Part shown: piece by piece, positions 49,227 to 60,369 of the stretch | How positions within the stretch are numbered: position 1 is the stretch's first letter | Layout of the letters: each line of letters starts with the position of its first letter | IMG/VR virus record: IMGVR_UViG_3300027971_000031 | Coordinates: 32,001 to 96,000 of that record | Length of the DNA stretch: 64,000 nucleotides | DNA from: a virus | Strand: one strand, 5' to 3' | Notes under the pieces: model-generated | What the model was told of the DNA's origin: nothing | What the model saw: only the letters and a program-made list of their open reading frames with translations | Databases searched by the model: none | Program-made: the position numbers and the translations under genes

Positions 49227-52097
49227 ATGGCATATCAAAACATTAATCAGTATAATTTTCGTAAATGGGGGATAAAACCAGTCAATGAAATTACCGACAT
49301 TTGCTTAGCGTCGGACGAGAGAGATTATGACCAAGAAGTCGTTTTTTCACCTTTATTAATAGGTGAATTTGATGGAAACAGAATGCCATTTAAGTTTGAC
49401 TTCAATAGTTCAGGAACAACTTTATGTCAAGTATCCCCTTGTGTTTTTAGTGCAGATACTATTGTTTCAGAGAATTATTGGAACCCTGACGACATTGACC
49501 CCAACTTTTGTCCAATCGTTACAGAATTATGTGATATTGGTCTAACGGGAATCGACAACGGACTTGTTCAAAACATGTCAGGTGAAACAATCGAAATTAC
49601 AACAGGATTATATACAAACATTTCAGACAAGTTTAGTAGATACAAATATGACAGGAGAATGAAACTTCATCCTATCACAGGTTTTACCACGACCGAAAAT
49701 AGATTATGGAATGATAACTCATACACTTATGATTTAAATTATCAAAACGTTGGTGGAGATATTGGGTATGTTGCAAACTTACAAGGTGGATTCTTCCAAG
49801 GGTTTTACAAAATACCAGGATATGATTACCAAGTTTTTCCACAAAGAGTCCCATTAGGTTGGACAGCTGAGTTCATGTTAAAGTATAGATGGACTGGTGA
49901 TACATCAGGAGGTCTTAACAACAGATATCCCGACAATAAAGGAACATTCTTTTACATGGGGGCAAGAGCCGAGAATAAATTTTACCATTATGCTGACGGT
50001 AGTCCAAAACAAGATACGGGATATACAAGAGTTACATCAGGTTTAACTTGTATGCACACTTGTGGTTGTGCAAGTAGTGCCAATACATCATCACAATGTC
50101 TTCAAGTGTATCAACCATCAGGTGGTACCATTACAAATTGTACTTGTGGATGTGCTTGTGATTGTACGACAACCGCTCAATACCCTGAAAAAGACCCACT
50201 ATATGATGAGGTTTCAAATGCATTGTCTTTAAGATTAAGTGGCGACACGGGTAGTCCAAGATTGTGTGTTAAGACATATAGAATAACAGGTGGATGTGAA
50301 CATAGTGGAACTTGTTTAACGGGACTCACTTATGTAACGGGGACTTCATTAACTGAATGGTGTTCGACAAGAGGTATTTTTGATGATTGTTCGGGAACCA
50401 CTTATCAAAATGTAGAACATTGGGTTCAGATTGATGCCGTATTCCAAAGATATGAATGGTTGGATAAATGTGACCTATATGATAAAGGTGGACTTGGTCT
50501 GCTTGTTAAAGATGTATATTATGCAACAATTGAAGGTAGAAGTGTAACCTTAATTGAACCTCCAATAACCCATGAAGCAAAATATGACCCAGCATCAACT
50601 GAAGTTGTGACATTCACTGACATGTGGACTGAAGAACAAAAGTATAGATTGGGAACACTTAAGTTTTATGTGAATGGAAAATTATTTATGGTCACTGAAA
50701 ACTTTGAAGAAATTATTCCAAGATTGTTGAATACTCCAAAAGAAAAACAAATTGGTGTTGGATATAACATTTCAATTGGTGGTGGTACTCAAGGACTTCA
50801 CGATAACTTAACATTCTCTGGTGGTTGTCCTGAAACAATTGGTGAAATTGTTTATCAACAAGACCCTGAGTGTTTAACTAATTATGATTTGGAACATACA
50901 ATTTATTCAGGATTAACAACCCAAATTAAATTGGAAGAATATTTTGGTGGTAGTATGATTGGAGAAATCAGTGCATTTAGAATGTATACTGAACCATTAA
51001 ATGCTTCACAAATTAAACACAACTTTAGAATATTAAAATTCAAATATAATTTATTAGACCCTGATTGTTTAAATTGTAGAATAACAATACCAGGAAATGA
51101 TTTAACATATATTTTAATTCCTAATAATGATTTATATTATTTGAGTATACCTGCGAATGATTTGTATTACGAACTAATTCAACCAACACCTACACCGACA
51201 AATACTCCAACTAATACGACAACGCCAACTAATACACAAACACCAACGCCAACAATTGGTACTATTACAATATCTCTTGTAGGTACATATTCACCAGGCT
51301 CAATCAACGCCAACTATATTGCAAATGCAAACACAACATTAGGTGTTGATATTGATATCACATTTGTTAACACTTTAGGTGTGACCAGTGGTTTACCAAT
51401 TGTTATCAGTGGCTCGGTTACAATACAATCGGGACAAACATTTGGAAGTAGTTATTATACTATCGTAGATGATTATAACTTATTAGACGATAATAGTGTT
51501 TTCACCTCGGTAAATGTATCAGTTACAGGCTCAACATCAAGTACGTTTGTTGTTAATACAATATCAGAGTTTGATGTTACACCAACACCAACTCCTTCAA
51601 TAACACCTACCAACACTGTAACCCCAACTAATACACCCACTAATACCGAAACACCCACTATAACACCAACTGTAACCCCAACTAATACACCTACTAATAC
51701 TAATACACCAACTGTAACACCAACTGTAACTTCAACAAACACACCTACTAATACTAATACACCAACGGTAACTCAAACTCCAACAAATACTGAAACGCCA
51801 ACACCAACCAATACTGAGACACCAACAAACACTCCAACTGAAACTCCTACTAATACACCAACTAATACACTAACACCAACTGAAACCCAAATCATTACTC
51901 CAACTCCAACAAATACTAATACACCAACCATTACCTCAACCCCAACACCGACAACAACAAGTACACCAACTGTGACACCAACTAATACTAAAACTCCAAC
52001 GCCGACTCCAACTTCAACTGAACCATTCTTTATTTTAATTCAAAATGGTGACATATTAACGGCTCAAGATGGTAGTGGAATAGAATATCAACATTAA
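49227..52097 (+). CDS. Large virion protein with LamG/concanavalin-like fold elements, Cys-rich inserts and Thr/Pro mucin-like tail
   Basis: [47 protein letters not shown]; long TPT tracts; C-terminal [14 protein letters not shown]. Confidence 0.7.
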
Positions 52098-52114
52098 AAC
52101 TAATATTTATAGAA

Positions 52115-57829: not shown

Positions 57830-58700
57830 ATTTATTACATCAATATATAGTGATTTATATGGTACCGAATATGGTGGACGAATTGGTAGAGGAGGACATT
57901 ATAGATACAGTCTGTTATCACTTTTAAAAATGACTGATGCCGATTTTTTATGTTATACCTCAGATAGAGAATTACCATCACTAATTACTTTTTTTTATGA
58001 AACTCATGGTATATCACCAGATAAATTAAAATTTGAAGTCTTTGATATTGCAAATACAAAATTCAAAGATTTAATTAATCAATACAAAGATGTTGAGGCA
58101 ACTAAAAAGTCTGACCGTTGTATTGAAGTTCAATATAGTAAATTTCATTGGTGGTGGAATGAAGATAAATCTTATGATTATTATTATTGGATTGATGCAG
58201 GATTATCACATTGTGGTTTAATTCCTGTAAAATATTTGGTTGGTACTCATCCTGAACAAAGATATTATGAATCAACCTTGTTTAACAACGATTTCTTAAA
58301 AAATTTAGTTGAGGATACTGGTGATAAATTTTTAATGATTGGAAAAGAAAATGACCGAAATTATTGGGCGGGAACTTTAAATCCTAAGTGGTATACAAAT
58401 TGGGAAAGAGGTATTCATATTATTGGTGGATTGTTTGGTGGTCATAAAGATAAGTGGGACGAAATTGTAACACTATTTGAAAATTATACAGAAAATGTTA
58501 TTACTGAAGATAAAGGTATACCTCATGAAGAAAATGTGATGACGTTGATGTATTATAACCATAAAGAATTAATTGAAAGAAAACATTTTGACATTTGGTG
58601 GTGTAGGGATAACGCACCTGCAGGTGTTACCGATGAAATGTTTGAGGAAAATAAAAGTTTTTTTAGAATTTTAGAAGAATTTAATAGAATATATGAGTAA
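57819..58700 (+). CDS. HtrL/WlaTC-like glycosyltransferase
   Basis: QYSKF, YYYWIDAGL, IIGGLFGG, EE.VM. Confidence 0.6.
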   Translation: MSVKFITSIYSDLYGTEYGGRIGRGGHYRYSLLSLLKMTDADFLCYTSDRELPSLITFFYETHGISPDKLKFEVFDIANTKFKDLINQYKDVEATKKSDRCIEVQYSKFHWWWNEDKSYDYYYWIDAGLSHCGLIPVKYLVGTHPEQRYYESTLFNNDFLKNLVEDTGDKFLMIGKENDRNYWAGTLNPKWYTNWERGIHIIGGLFGGHKDKWDEIVTLFENYTENVITEDKGIPHEENVMTLMYYNHKELIERKHFDIWWCRDNAPAGVTDEMFEENKSFFRILEEFNRIYE

Positions 58701-60369
58701 TATAACTTTAGTAACAGGAATATGGGATATTGGTAGAGGTGAACTATCTGAAGGATGGTCAAGACCTTACCAACATTATTTAGATAAGTTTGAGCAACTT
58801 TTAAAGTGCGATGAAAACATGATTATTTTTGGAGATGAAGAACTTCAAAAATTTGTCTTTGAACGAAGAAGTCGGGATAACACTCAATTTATTCTTAGAC
58901 CAATGTCTTGGTTTAGAGAGTCTGAATTTTTTGATAAAGTTCAGAAAATTAGGACAAATGAACAATGGAAAAACTTATCGGGATGGTTAAAAGAATCAAC
59001 TCAAGGTAGATTAGAGAATTATAATCCGTTAGTAATGTCCAAAGTGTTTTTATTACACGATGCTAAAATTATGGACAGATTCAATTCTGAATATATGTTT
59101 TGGATTGATGGTGGATTAACAAATACCGTTCACCAAGGTTATTTTACTCACGATAAAGTTCTTAATAATCTATCAAAATATATTTCAAAATTTTCATTTA
59201 TTTGTTTCCCATACGATGCGGAAAATGAAATTCATGGGTTTGAATATAATGCGTTAAATTCTATTGCTGGTTCAAAAGTTAATAAAGTTGCACGAGGTGG
59301 ATTCTTTGGTGGTCCAAAACACACTATTAGTGATATTAATGGAATCTATTATGGATTACTTAAATCAACATTAGATGAGGGATATATGGGTACCGAAGAA
59401 TCAATCTTCAGTATTATGTGTTATAAACATTCTGACATGATTAATTATTTTGAAATTGAATCTAATGGTTTAGTTGGTAAGTTTTTTGAAGATTTAAAGA
59501 ACGGTGAATTAAAACCTAAATCTGAAAACATTAATAAAGAAACGAACACATTAGATGTTAATAAAGTTGGTTTATATGTTATCACATTTAACAGTCCAAA
59601 ACAATTCTCAACTTTAATTGAATCTATGAATGCGTACGATAAAGATTATTTATTAAAAACTAAAAAGTTTTTGTTAGATAACTCAAGTGATGAATCAACA
59701 TTTGATGATTATGCTAAATTGTGTGAAGAGAATGGTTTTGAACACATTAAAAAAGATAATTTAGGTATTTGTGGTGGTCGTCAGTGGATTGCAGAACATT
59801 TCCAAAATGAAACAGATTTAGATTTCTATTTGTTTTTTGAAGATGACATGTTCTTTTATCCAAAAGAAGGTGATGTGTGTAGAAATGGATTTAATAGATA
59901 TGTTTCAAATTTATATTCAAAAACATTACAAATTGTTAAGAAAGAAAACTTTGATTTTTTAAAACTTAATTATAGTGAATTCTTTGGTGACAATGGTACT
60001 CAATGGGCTTGGTACAACGTGCCTCAAGATGTGAGACAAAAGTATTGGCCAGGTAAAGATAGATTACCTGTTCAAGGTTTAGACCCAAATGCCCCAAGAG
60101 CGGTTTATAATTCAGTTAATTCATTTCAAGGAGTTCCTTATGTTACGGGTGATGTATATTATTGTAATTGGCCTCAAATCGTTACAAGAACAGGAAATCA
60201 AAAAATGTTCTTAGATACAACATGGGGACATCCATTCGAACAAACATGGATGAGTCATATGTATCAGTTAGTCAAGAAAGGTGAGTTATATCCTGGTTTA
60301 TTACTCATGACACCAACAGAACACGATAGATTTGAACATTACGAAAGAAGTTTAAGAAAAGAGTCATAA
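58693..60369 (+). CDS. HtrL/WlaTC-like glycosyltransferase fused to GT2-like domain
   Basis: ITLVTGIWDIGR, YNPLVMSK, FWIDGG, GGFFGG, GTEESIF; C-half LLDNS, NLGICGGR, FFEDDM. Confidence 0.7.
   Translation: MSNITLVTGIWDIGRGELSEGWSRPYQHYLDKFEQLLKCDENMIIFGDEELQKFVFERRSRDNTQFILRPMSWFRESEFFDKVQKIRTNEQWKNLSGWLKESTQGRLENYNPLVMSKVFLLHDAKIMDRFNSEYMFWIDGGLTNTVHQGYFTHDKVLNNLSKYISKFSFICFPYDAENEIHGFEYNALNSIAGSKVNKVARGGFFGGPKHTISDINGIYYGLLKSTLDEGYMGTEESIFSIMCYKHSDMINYFEIESNGLVGKFFEDLKNGELKPKSENINKETNTLDVNKVGLYVITFNSPKQFSTLIESMNAYDKDYLLKTKKFLLDNSSDESTFDDYAKLCEENGFEHIKKDNLGICGGRQWIAEHFQNETDLDFYLFFEDDMFFYPKEGDVCRNGFNRYVSNLYSKTLQIVKKENFDFLKLNYSEFFGDNGTQWAWYNVPQDVRQKYWPGKDRLPVQGLDPNAPRAVYNSVNSFQGVPYVTGDVYYCNWPQIVTRTGNQKMFLDTTWGHPFEQTWMSHMYQLVKKGELYPGLLLMTPTEHDRFEHYERSLRKES

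Follow-up and report, generated by a model that had tools for sequence, protein, structure and literature searches.

Whether a bacteriophage can build a mucin-type glycan coat on its own proteins is the question raised by a block of genes at 49227–60369 on the plus strand of a 64,000-nucleotide stretch of viral DNA, hereafter the window (bases 32001–96000 of the 107-kb IMG/VR record IMGVR_UViG_3300027971_000031; GC content around 32%; CheckV completeness of the record 36%). In this block, genes for proteins with long Thr/Pro-rich (TP) tracts are followed by a gene for an enzyme of glycosyltransferase (GT) family 60 and by further GT genes. A preliminary description, made from the sequence alone, had proposed that the TP-rich proteins are virion proteins which the GT60 enzyme primes with GlcNAc in the bacterial cytoplasm, giving rise to a glycan-brush coat. 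The open reading frames (ORFs), coordinates and motifs of that description were all correct. As for its interpretation, the phage probably sugar-coats proteins of its own particle, and the best single reading, which we hold tentatively as nearly an even call, is that of a phage-encoded cytoplasmic protein O-glycosylation system priming the TP tracts. The glycan-coat proposal is partly supported: membership in GT60, a fold like that of polypeptide GalNAc-transferases (ppGalNAc-Ts), a conserved gene module and the co-occurrence of tracts with the enzyme speak for it, whereas it is weakened by an adjacency of the TP and GT60 genes that holds in some lineages only, by a terminator-like hairpin between them and by a virion location of the TP proteins that is presumed.

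The source of the window is a jumbo phage of roughly 320 kb, since a collinear relative (G004), which carries direct terminal repeats and was rated complete, has a length of 321 kb; identities between the proteins of G004 and those of the window are mostly 60–86%.

The enzyme in question is a GT60 polypeptide N-acetylhexosamine (HexNAc)-transferase-like protein of 421 amino acids (aa), encoded at 55830–57095 (+), with a GT-A catalytic domain at approximately residues 1–325. The IASYRD, QIDSH and FHGEE motifs that had suggested the family were all found in it, and the hidden Markov model search named as a check confirmed the assignment: PF11397 (GlcNAc) matched with an E value of 6.2e-66 and 223.7 bits versus a cut-off of 21, over profile positions 2–44 and 97–349 of 352. 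A match to phrog_24687 (E 1.5e-166) was also obtained. Residues D92, H94, E204, E205 and H229 were invariant in an alignment of 35 diverse homologues, down to 36% identity, and D92-S-H94 together with the C-terminal H229 appear to fit the DxH/His metal-site pattern of GT60. The use of DxH instead of DxD is specific to the GT-A families GT27 and GT60 (PMC7185993), which have the O-glycosylation of Ser/Thr in polypeptides in common (PMC7185993; PMC8724618). The GT60 enzymes that have been characterised transfer alpha-GlcNAc to polypeptides, either to Thr-rich domains of the mucin type or to hydroxyproline (PMC8724618; PMC3769586); for instance, the T. cruzi enzyme, for which Mn2+ is required, was assayed on KPPTTTTTTTTKPP (PMC3769586), and Gnt1 of Dictyostelium has just one hydroxyproline, in one protein, as its target (PMC8724618). 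Because the characterised members act on polypeptides, family membership makes a polypeptide acceptor a reasonable expectation for the phage enzyme.

The predicted structure pointed in the same direction. An AlphaFold model of the enzyme displayed a GT-A fold (predicted local distance difference test, pLDDT, 94; predicted template modelling score, pTM, 0.89), and all top matches of a Foldseek search with this model were polypeptide GalNAc-transferases (E ~1e-10). With a second structural aligner, the top 29 PDB entries were all ppGalNAc-T catalytic domains (Z 19.2–22.8, root-mean-square deviation 3.2–3.7 Å, 252–280 residues aligned), whereas generic GT-A enzymes reached a Z of 17.1 or less. 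Identity in the alignments with ppGalNAc-Ts was only 12–15%, and neither the single sequence nor a profile matched any PDB sequence. Since no ricin/lectin Pfam match was found either, the enzyme is not a GT27 member by sequence and its likeness to that family is structural only. At residues ~325–415, where GT27 enzymes carry their lectin domain, the phage protein has a conserved beta-rich C-terminal domain of ~95 aa in which W407 is nearly invariant.

With regard to the candidate acceptors, four of the five genes at 49227–55747 encode Thr/Pro tracts, as had been described, and the tracts follow the pattern (T-P-T-x)n. The further mucin-like gene noted at 2881–5082 was likewise borne out, its 733-aa product holding 359 tract residues. 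These five, four of which abut GT60, are the only strongly TP-rich ORFs in the 107-kb record. Their tracts comprise 1,049 residues in total, of which 42% are Thr and 19% Pro, compared with a background of 6.0% and 3.8%, respectively, in the remaining ORFs of the record; the five proteins contain 161 occurrences of TPT between them, and the tracts have no sites for trypsin. The DNA under the tracts consists of degenerate tandem repeats (period 12–66 nt, 59–100% match) with mixed synonymous codons, and therefore the TP composition is kept at the protein level. A small ORF of 89 aa ('VGVTVGV', 51473–51742, minus strand) is almost certainly spurious: it is a TP tract read in antisense. None of the five TP-rich proteins has a signal peptide or, according to a hydropathy scan, a transmembrane (TM) segment, and the same applies to GT60; because of this, the proposed modification in the cytoplasm fits.

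We then asked how tightly the enzyme and the tracts are linked. In the clade of the window, same-strand TP-rich ORFs were found within 7 kb upstream of GT60 in 51 of the 51 loci with enough upstream sequence, and none downstream; these ORFs range from 98 to 1474 aa. A distant clade (L107–L123), whose GT60 is 45–48% identical, has four Thr/Pro- or Thr/Ser-rich ORFs interleaved with two GT60 paralogues, the ORFs reaching 925 aa with 765 residues in tracts. At the genome level, the pattern TPTxTPT matched 74 times in G004, 51 times in the Xanthomonas phage XacN1, 46 times in G001 and 22 times in the Stenotrophomonas phage CM1, all of them GT60-positive, but not at all in the GT60-negative jumbo phages Atu_ph07, SCTP-2 and RaK2, and reversed-pattern controls gave 0–1 matches. 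An initiating HexNAc-transferase-like enzyme and Thr/Pro tandem-repeat candidate acceptors do, hence, occur together in one genome. The expected co-occurrence in related phages was observed in the window clade, in L107–L123 and in G001, XacN1 and CM1, but in G003 it came down to three matches and in G002 to none. Likewise, the placement of putative substrate genes directly beside GT60 was found in the window clade and in L107–L123, but it is lineage-specific, as TP-rich ORFs are missing from the 10 kb around GT60 in several clades. Altogether, the link between GT60 and the tracts is real at the genome level in a small sample, and neither universal nor statistically secured. As to paralogues, one clade has two GT60 genes, in tandem in L091 (8721–11287) and with two TP-rich genes between them in L108 (3841–5100 and 10001–11278).

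Downstream of GT60, three further genes complete the block. The first of them (57095–57829, +) encodes a 244-aa protein for which membership in GT25 was upheld (PF01755, E 1.5e-12, 48.3 bits versus a cut-off of 24). Of the two HtrL-like GTs that had been proposed to follow, the 558-aa protein (58693–60369, +) carries an N-terminal HtrL_YibB domain (PF09612, E 4.8e-19, 69.4 bits versus 24.1, residues 3–252), whereas the 293-aa protein (57819–58700, +) has no Pfam match of its own, nor a credible one in a permissive scan, and is HtrL-like by profile only: its family profile aligned with the HtrL domain of the 558-aa family with a probability of 98% (hhalign, E 3e-13, 242 columns), and PF09612 matched weakly (E 0.0014) in 2 of 14 members of its family. 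The C-terminal half of the 558-aa protein (59560–60366) forms a domain of ~270 aa that is highly conserved and in which E383-D384-D385 is invariant; it gave no credible match in a permissive Pfam scan, and the 558-aa family profile had no match among PDB sequences. It is possibly a further, undescribed GT-A-like domain.

The GT60 gene and its HtrL-like partners form a module that is conserved far beyond the window. Among 50,697 deposited phage genomes, GT60 homologues were present in four, namely those of the Xanthomonas phages XacN1 and Xoo-sp13 and of the Stenotrophomonas phages CM1 and RAS14, and the whole block had no megablast match in these records. Both Xanthomonas phages have the gene order GT60, carbamoyltransferase, 286-aa ORF, 246-aa ORF and 546-aa ORF. 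XacN1 ORF334 is the GT60 orthologue (45% identity), the 286-aa ORF (ORF332 in XacN1) is orthologous to the 293-aa protein (E 6e-25), and the 558-aa protein has its orthologue in the 546-aa ORF (ORF330; 42% identity, E 2e-163); the slot taken by the GT25 in the window is variable and holds a non-homologous gene in XacN1. The 558-aa homologue is the most constant partner of GT60, and in ~190 IMG/VR loci it almost always follows at a distance of 1.3–12 kb. As judged from these comparisons, the conserved core consists of GT60 and the HtrL-like partners, with variable GTs between them. In XacN1 the GT cluster abuts baseplate-wedge genes, a 3313-aa protein with PT linkers and a fibre-like ORF. In addition, purified XacN1 virions gave at least two periodate-Schiff-positive bands, for which the authors proposed the phage GTs ORF328 and ORF334 to be responsible (PMC5852040). 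GT60-like proteins show great diversity in metagenomes, where they form 4,556 clusters at 50% identity. Many metagenomic proteins of 900–2461 aa have two to five tandem GT60-like stretches. A 74%-identical GT60 (P0091) lies on a 100.6-kb contig that is labelled 'bacterium' or Candidatus Elulimicrobium (Patescibacteria group) in NCBI/nr and that may be a mis-binned jumbo-phage fragment.

The TP-rich proteins themselves, all encoded on the plus strand, are modular. The 956-aa protein (49227–52097) comprises a conserved Cys-rich core of 640 aa, a short TP linker, a beta-rich module of ~110 aa, a TP tract of 163 residues and a short C-terminal tail. Next to it lies the gene for the only protein of the five without a TP tract (168 aa, 52115–52621), whose N-terminus resembles, by eye and without a family match, a common tail-fibre N-terminal motif. 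The 186-aa protein (52623–53183) has two small globular modules with a 51-residue TP linker between them. In the 468-aa protein (53229–54635), 291 of the 468 residues are in TP tracts, with three small Cys-containing modules in between, and the 348-aa protein (54701–55747) has two TP tracts amounting to 146 residues and a C-terminal module of ~85 aa that resembles that of the 468-aa protein. The 733-aa protein encoded at 2881–5082, just upstream of the head module, has four tract segments. Neither the 733-aa protein nor the globular modules that lie between the tracts gave a credible match in permissive Pfam scans. The 640-aa core is 64–98% identical in relatives, in which the total length of the protein varies from 651 to 1585 aa and the TP-rich tail from absent to ~900 residues. 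A protein-atlas search with this core returned viral-only clusters, with LamG_3 as a weak lead in 36% of one cluster, so that a LamG/ConA-like region is possible; no match was found for it in phage genomes by tblastn.

A number of observations weigh against the priming of TP tracts by GT60. The agreement among close relatives of the window reflects shared ancestry and is not independent evidence, and the probability of chance adjacency in one genome, estimated from the five TP clusters of the 321-kb G004, is about 0.28. The clades L088–L106 and L127–L146 have GT60 and the 558-aa homologue and no TP-rich ORF within 10 kb; the two GT60 genes of G003 (166 kb, CheckV 100% complete) are accompanied by only 3 tract matches, the GT60-positive G002 (54% complete) has no tract matches, and a long distance separates the tracts from GT60 in G001 and XacN1. 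Some close relatives have a 956-aa orthologue without the TP tail, so that the tracts are dispensable appendages. A short TP tract was found in only 3 of 150 GT60 representatives, and as short linkers only; this fusion test was uninformative. To our knowledge, an acceptor is known for no prokaryotic or phage GT60. Concerning the designation of the TP proteins as 'virion proteins', it went beyond the evidence: in family searches they matched no structural family, and the AlphaFold model of the 640-aa core, built with 26 close homologues, was unusable (pLDDT 34.6) and gave no fold support for a structural role, so that both their virion location and their glycosylation are deduced. The genomic context would suit a particle role in several places, as the 733-aa TP protein adjoins the head module, a second TP cluster of G004 adjoins a collagen-repeat fibre and the XacN1 GT cluster abuts baseplate genes.

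A strong terminator-like hairpin (55771–55804, +; 15-bp stem, 4-nt loop and T-run) that separates the TP block from GT60 also counts against the reading. Contigs of RNA libraries from three runs end at 55732–55753, just before the hairpin, which is a weak hint. In lake RNA libraries, contigs without a single mismatch extend over the two blocks, again a weak hint given that DNA carry-over is possible and that contig depth cannot rank genes; they include the 3' half of the 348-aa gene. The TP block and the GT60 block are probably separate transcription units.

What is established here, that is, the enzyme family and fold, the tract composition, the conservation of the module, the genome-level co-occurrence and the lack of phage-encoded export machinery, is compatible with a scheme in which we infer which sugar is donated, which proteins accept it, that the TP proteins are part of the virion and what each extending GT does. 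A soluble, metal-dependent GT60 (DxH plus C-terminal His) would act as a polypeptide alpha-HexNAc transferase, with UDP-GlcNAc as the most likely donor, and would prime Thr hydroxyls on phage structural proteins. The best candidate acceptors would be the (T-P-T-x)n tracts of hypervariable fibre-like proteins, both upstream of GT60 and elsewhere in the genome. The primer sugar could then be extended or decorated by the 293-aa and 558-aa HtrL-like proteins, by the swappable GT25 and by the GTs and nucleotide-sugar enzymes encoded at 28–46 kb, and extended linkers would in this way acquire a glycan brush specific to the lineage. A stronger version of this scheme, which we consider doubtful, is that a widespread jumbo-phage family, found in lake water and in Xanthomonas and Stenotrophomonas, bears a true mucin-like brush, with GT60 priming hundreds of Thr or hydroxyproline residues in fast-evolving (TPTx)n tracts and a swappable cassette diversifying the coat.

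Some of the same facts would also be accommodated if the GT60 module glycosylated particle proteins at a conserved site outside the tracts, for example on a capsid decoration protein, the tail or a collagen-like fibre, and the TP tracts were plain flexible spacers. Such an arrangement would account for lineages, and a complete genome, that retain GT60 and the 558-aa homologue while having few tracts or none; the dispensability of the TP tails in close relatives and the terminator between the blocks agree with it as well. Moreover, G004 encodes both a 1805-aa collagen-repeat fibre and three PF13640 oxygenases, the GT25-like domain of Mimivirus L230 glucosylates hydroxylysine of a viral collagen (PMC9614988), and Gnt1 is a precedent for a GT60 devoted to one hydroxyproline of one Dictyostelium protein (PMC8724618). 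We nevertheless regard a non-tract acceptor as unlikely, since among the jumbo phages tested TPTxTPT tracts occurred only in GT60-positive ones, a distant clade has TP-rich ORFs interspersed among its GT60 paralogues, the nearest folds are those of enzymes that work on dense Thr/Ser/Pro tracts, and no alternative conserved acceptor was identified. The glycans might, on the other hand, be destined for the host envelope: remodelling of lipopolysaccharide (LPS), capsule or surface glycoproteins by the GTs and sugar-nucleotide enzymes could block superinfection or reduce the sticking of progeny to debris, as has been proposed for jumbo cyanophages. A comparative study of jumbo phages reads similar GT/sugar clusters as capsular or O-antigen modification (PMC7824862), HtrL/YibB and GT25 were first seen in LPS loci, and the cassette at 31.7–40.4 kb varies like an O-antigen locus. 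Yet neither the 107-kb record nor the 321-kb G004 encodes a polytopic protein of Wzx/Wzy/WecA size, for which a host lipid carrier or flippase could substitute; the characterised members of GT60 and its nearest structural relatives are all polypeptide transferases (PMC8724618); and XacN1 virions themselves carry glycoproteins. These points weaken envelope remodelling, least so for the minus-strand cassette, and leave it improbable as an account of the locus.

Two further proposals take the enzyme away from glycoconjugates of the particle or the envelope. As a host-takeover effector, GT60 would glycosylate a specific host protein, in the manner of Gnt1 on Skp1 or of bacterial glycosylating toxins, and have no role in the particle. 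Its soluble and cytoplasmic nature would suit this function, as would its position, both in the window and in XacN1, close to replication genes such as the DNA polymerase gene, and PHROGs places the family under 'moron, auxiliary metabolic gene and host takeover'. That category is an automatic label, in some lineages GT60 sits among structural-looking, hypervariable genes, and the further GT genes that always accompany it suggest extension of a glycan, not a single inactivating sugar; we therefore judge an effector role to be distinctly improbable. Very improbable, in our estimation, is that the cluster glycosylates hypermodified bases of the phage DNA against restriction, as the T-even glucosyltransferases do. 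The cluster lies 0.5–8 kb from the DNA polymerase gene in the window and in XacN1, and the window contains a dUTPase/dCTP-deaminase-like gene and G004 a gene of the thymidylate-synthase family, but the match of the latter is strong, full-length and typical of an ordinary ThyA, and the best structural neighbours of GT60 are peptide-binding enzymes. No Tet/JBP match was obtained, and since control genomes had none either, this search was uninformative. We know of no member of GT60 or GT27 that acts on DNA, which also counts against such a function.

The glycan locus is larger than had been stated. Nine GT genes on the minus strand (28.2–46.5 kb) and four on the plus strand amount to 13 in 32 kb. 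The nine comprise four GT2, a GT1/4-like, a GT11 and a GT10-like enzyme, a GT2_5+GT4 fusion and a 404-aa GT, and the same minus-strand stretch encodes two DegT aminotransferases and a DegT fragment, a short-chain dehydrogenase/reductase (SDR)-type epimerase/dehydratase, a UDP-glucose dehydrogenase, PglD-like and GNAT acetyltransferases and a CmcI-type O-methyltransferase. Its left flank (28195–31685, −) is conserved, with GT2 (28195–29034), the GT1/4-like gene (29003–30055), small ORFs and PhoH (30936–31685) being 70–76% identical in G004. The right flank (40403–46461, −), also conserved, holds a GT2, the UDP-glucose dehydrogenase, the GT2_5+GT4 fusion (544 aa), the dUTPase, an exonuclease and the GT1-like 404-aa GT. 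Between them lies a variable nucleotide-sugar/GT cassette (31730–40410, both strands) with DegT, SDR, GT11, the DegT fragment (+), the PglD-like gene (+), the GT10-like gene, the O-methyltransferase, GT2, GNAT, DegT and GT2. Compared with G004, identity in the cassette was only 24–35%, or there was no match, in contrast to 70–85% in the flanks. By this comparison, the stretch behaves like a swappable, O-antigen-type glycan cassette. As for membrane proteins, a crude hydropathy scan detected no ORF with more than one TM segment in the 107-kb record and none with more than four in the 321-kb G004, the two with four being of 116 and 239 aa; because no ORF in the 321 kb exceeds four TM segments, no Wzx/Wzy/WecA-type protein is encoded.

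A second glycan and fibre locus was observed in G004 (303–321 kb plus 0–9.5 kb; L215:3064–19717 and L200:1–9480). There, TP-rich proteins, one of 949 aa with SprB repeats and two others of 456 and 1433 aa, are encoded beside a GT9, a 1229-aa FkbM+GT1/4+GT9 fusion and an FkbM methyltransferase, and the locus continues with the collagen-repeat fibre of 1805 aa, which matches Pfam Collagen with an E value of 1e-219, and with an SprB-repeat protein of 712 aa. PF13640 2-oxoglutarate-Fe(II) oxygenases, a family that includes prolyl 4-hydroxylases, number three in G004 (L217 and L219; 28.8, 153 and 162 kb) and three in G002; none was found in the 107-kb record, G001 or G003. That these oxygenases, together with GT60 and GT25, might give rise to hydroxyproline- or hydroxylysine-linked glycans is speculative.

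As regards the phage as a whole, the window has three main parts: the head module, with terminase (8875–10635), portal (10676–12529) and major capsid protein (16708–18513); the long minus-strand block of glycan genes; and the plus-strand TP/GT60 block, which is followed by the gene of a family-B DNA polymerase. The SprB repeats in fibre-like proteins of relatives may be taken as a hint of a Bacteroidota host. The clade is common in lakes, with at least 152 related IMG/VR loci, and DNA near-identical to the window occurs in freshwater/lake metagenomes of ~19 studies with matching runs.

If the TP tracts are indeed primed by GT60, phages would be using the initiating chemistry of eukaryotic mucin-type glycosylation (GT60/GT27-type) to coat their own Thr/Pro linkers in the bacterial cytoplasm, and a chemistry characterised so far only in eukaryotes would have its place in the virus/prokaryote world. 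The tracts would represent the first acceptor for a GT60 of that world, and there would be a reason for the more than a dozen GT genes of these jumbo phages. A 'phage glycocalyx' of this kind could tune adhesion, protease resistance or recognition, and hence be relevant to phage adhesion, stability and recognition in lakes, while the enzymes would offer a soluble, cytoplasmic toolkit of mucin-type glycosylation for glycoengineering. The hypothesis is directly testable in XacN1, since this phage is cultured and has an orthologous module, PT tracts and periodic acid–Schiff-positive virion proteins. The novelty that had been claimed holds in part: none of the literature searched describes GT60 paired with mucin-like tracts, but virion glycosylation by phages is known from mycobacteriophages and was proposed for the XacN1 orthologue of GT60 in 2018. 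For mycobacteriophages, work cited in PMC12582341 and PMC10568470 has phage-encoded GTs modifying virion proteins in the cytoplasm of the host, with glycans that alter recognition of the particle. Glycosylation of particle proteins by enzymes that a virus encodes is established in these phages and in giant viruses (PMC9614988).

XacN1 is among the closest known systems, with orthologous GT60, 293-aa and 558-aa genes in the same order and PT-rich tracts in several large proteins; ORF232, ORF235–237, ORF325, ORF350 and ORF384 carry PT tracts. It differs from the window in having an extra carbamoyltransferase, a different GT in the variable slot and tracts that are scattered rather than clustered at GT60; its enzyme was not recognised as GT60 by the authors, and the periodate-Schiff bands were not assigned to proteins. 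The protist GT60 enzymes (Dictyostelium Gnt1 and Gnt2/GntB, T. cruzi OGNT2) share with that of the phage PF11397, the DxH and C-terminal His and the lack of a ricin-type lectin domain; like the cytoplasmic Gnt1, the phage enzyme is soluble, and its candidate acceptors are Thr/Pro-rich, as are the mucin-type domains of protists and the KPPT8KPP peptide (PMC8724618; PMC3769586). Unlike them, it is encoded by a bacteriophage, is predicted to work in the bacterial cytoplasm, on a donor and an acceptor that are likewise predicted, and has the extra C-terminal domain of ~95 aa. The GT27 ppGalNAc-Ts of animals and Toxoplasma are the best structural match and have the DxH/His metal site in common with it, from which the phage protein departs in its 12–15% identity and in being neither lectin-tailed, nor membrane-anchored, nor a Golgi enzyme.

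Among bacteria, the serine-rich repeat (SRR) adhesin islands of Gram-positive species follow a comparable logic, with priming of Ser/Thr-rich repeats with GlcNAc by GtfA/GtfB in the cytoplasm and extension by variable GTs of the same locus. They differ from the phage locus in their GT-B (GT4) priming complex, Ser-rich repeats, accessory Sec export and bacterial rather than viral nature. The mycobacteriophages studied by Freeman et al. (2023) reportedly use other GT families on capsid and tail-tube subunits, with neither long mucin-like tracts nor GT60. Giant viruses have eukaryotic hosts and differ from the phage locus in their initiating enzymes and linkages, and GT60 is not mentioned in a review of their glycosylation (PMC9614988). 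Like the phage, they nonetheless decorate particle proteins with GTs and nucleotide-sugar enzymes of their own, independently of host pathways, as in the capsid glycans of chloroviruses and the fibrils and L230 of Mimivirus, and a GT25-like domain and collagen-like fibres are found in both these viruses and the phages described here (PMC9614988).

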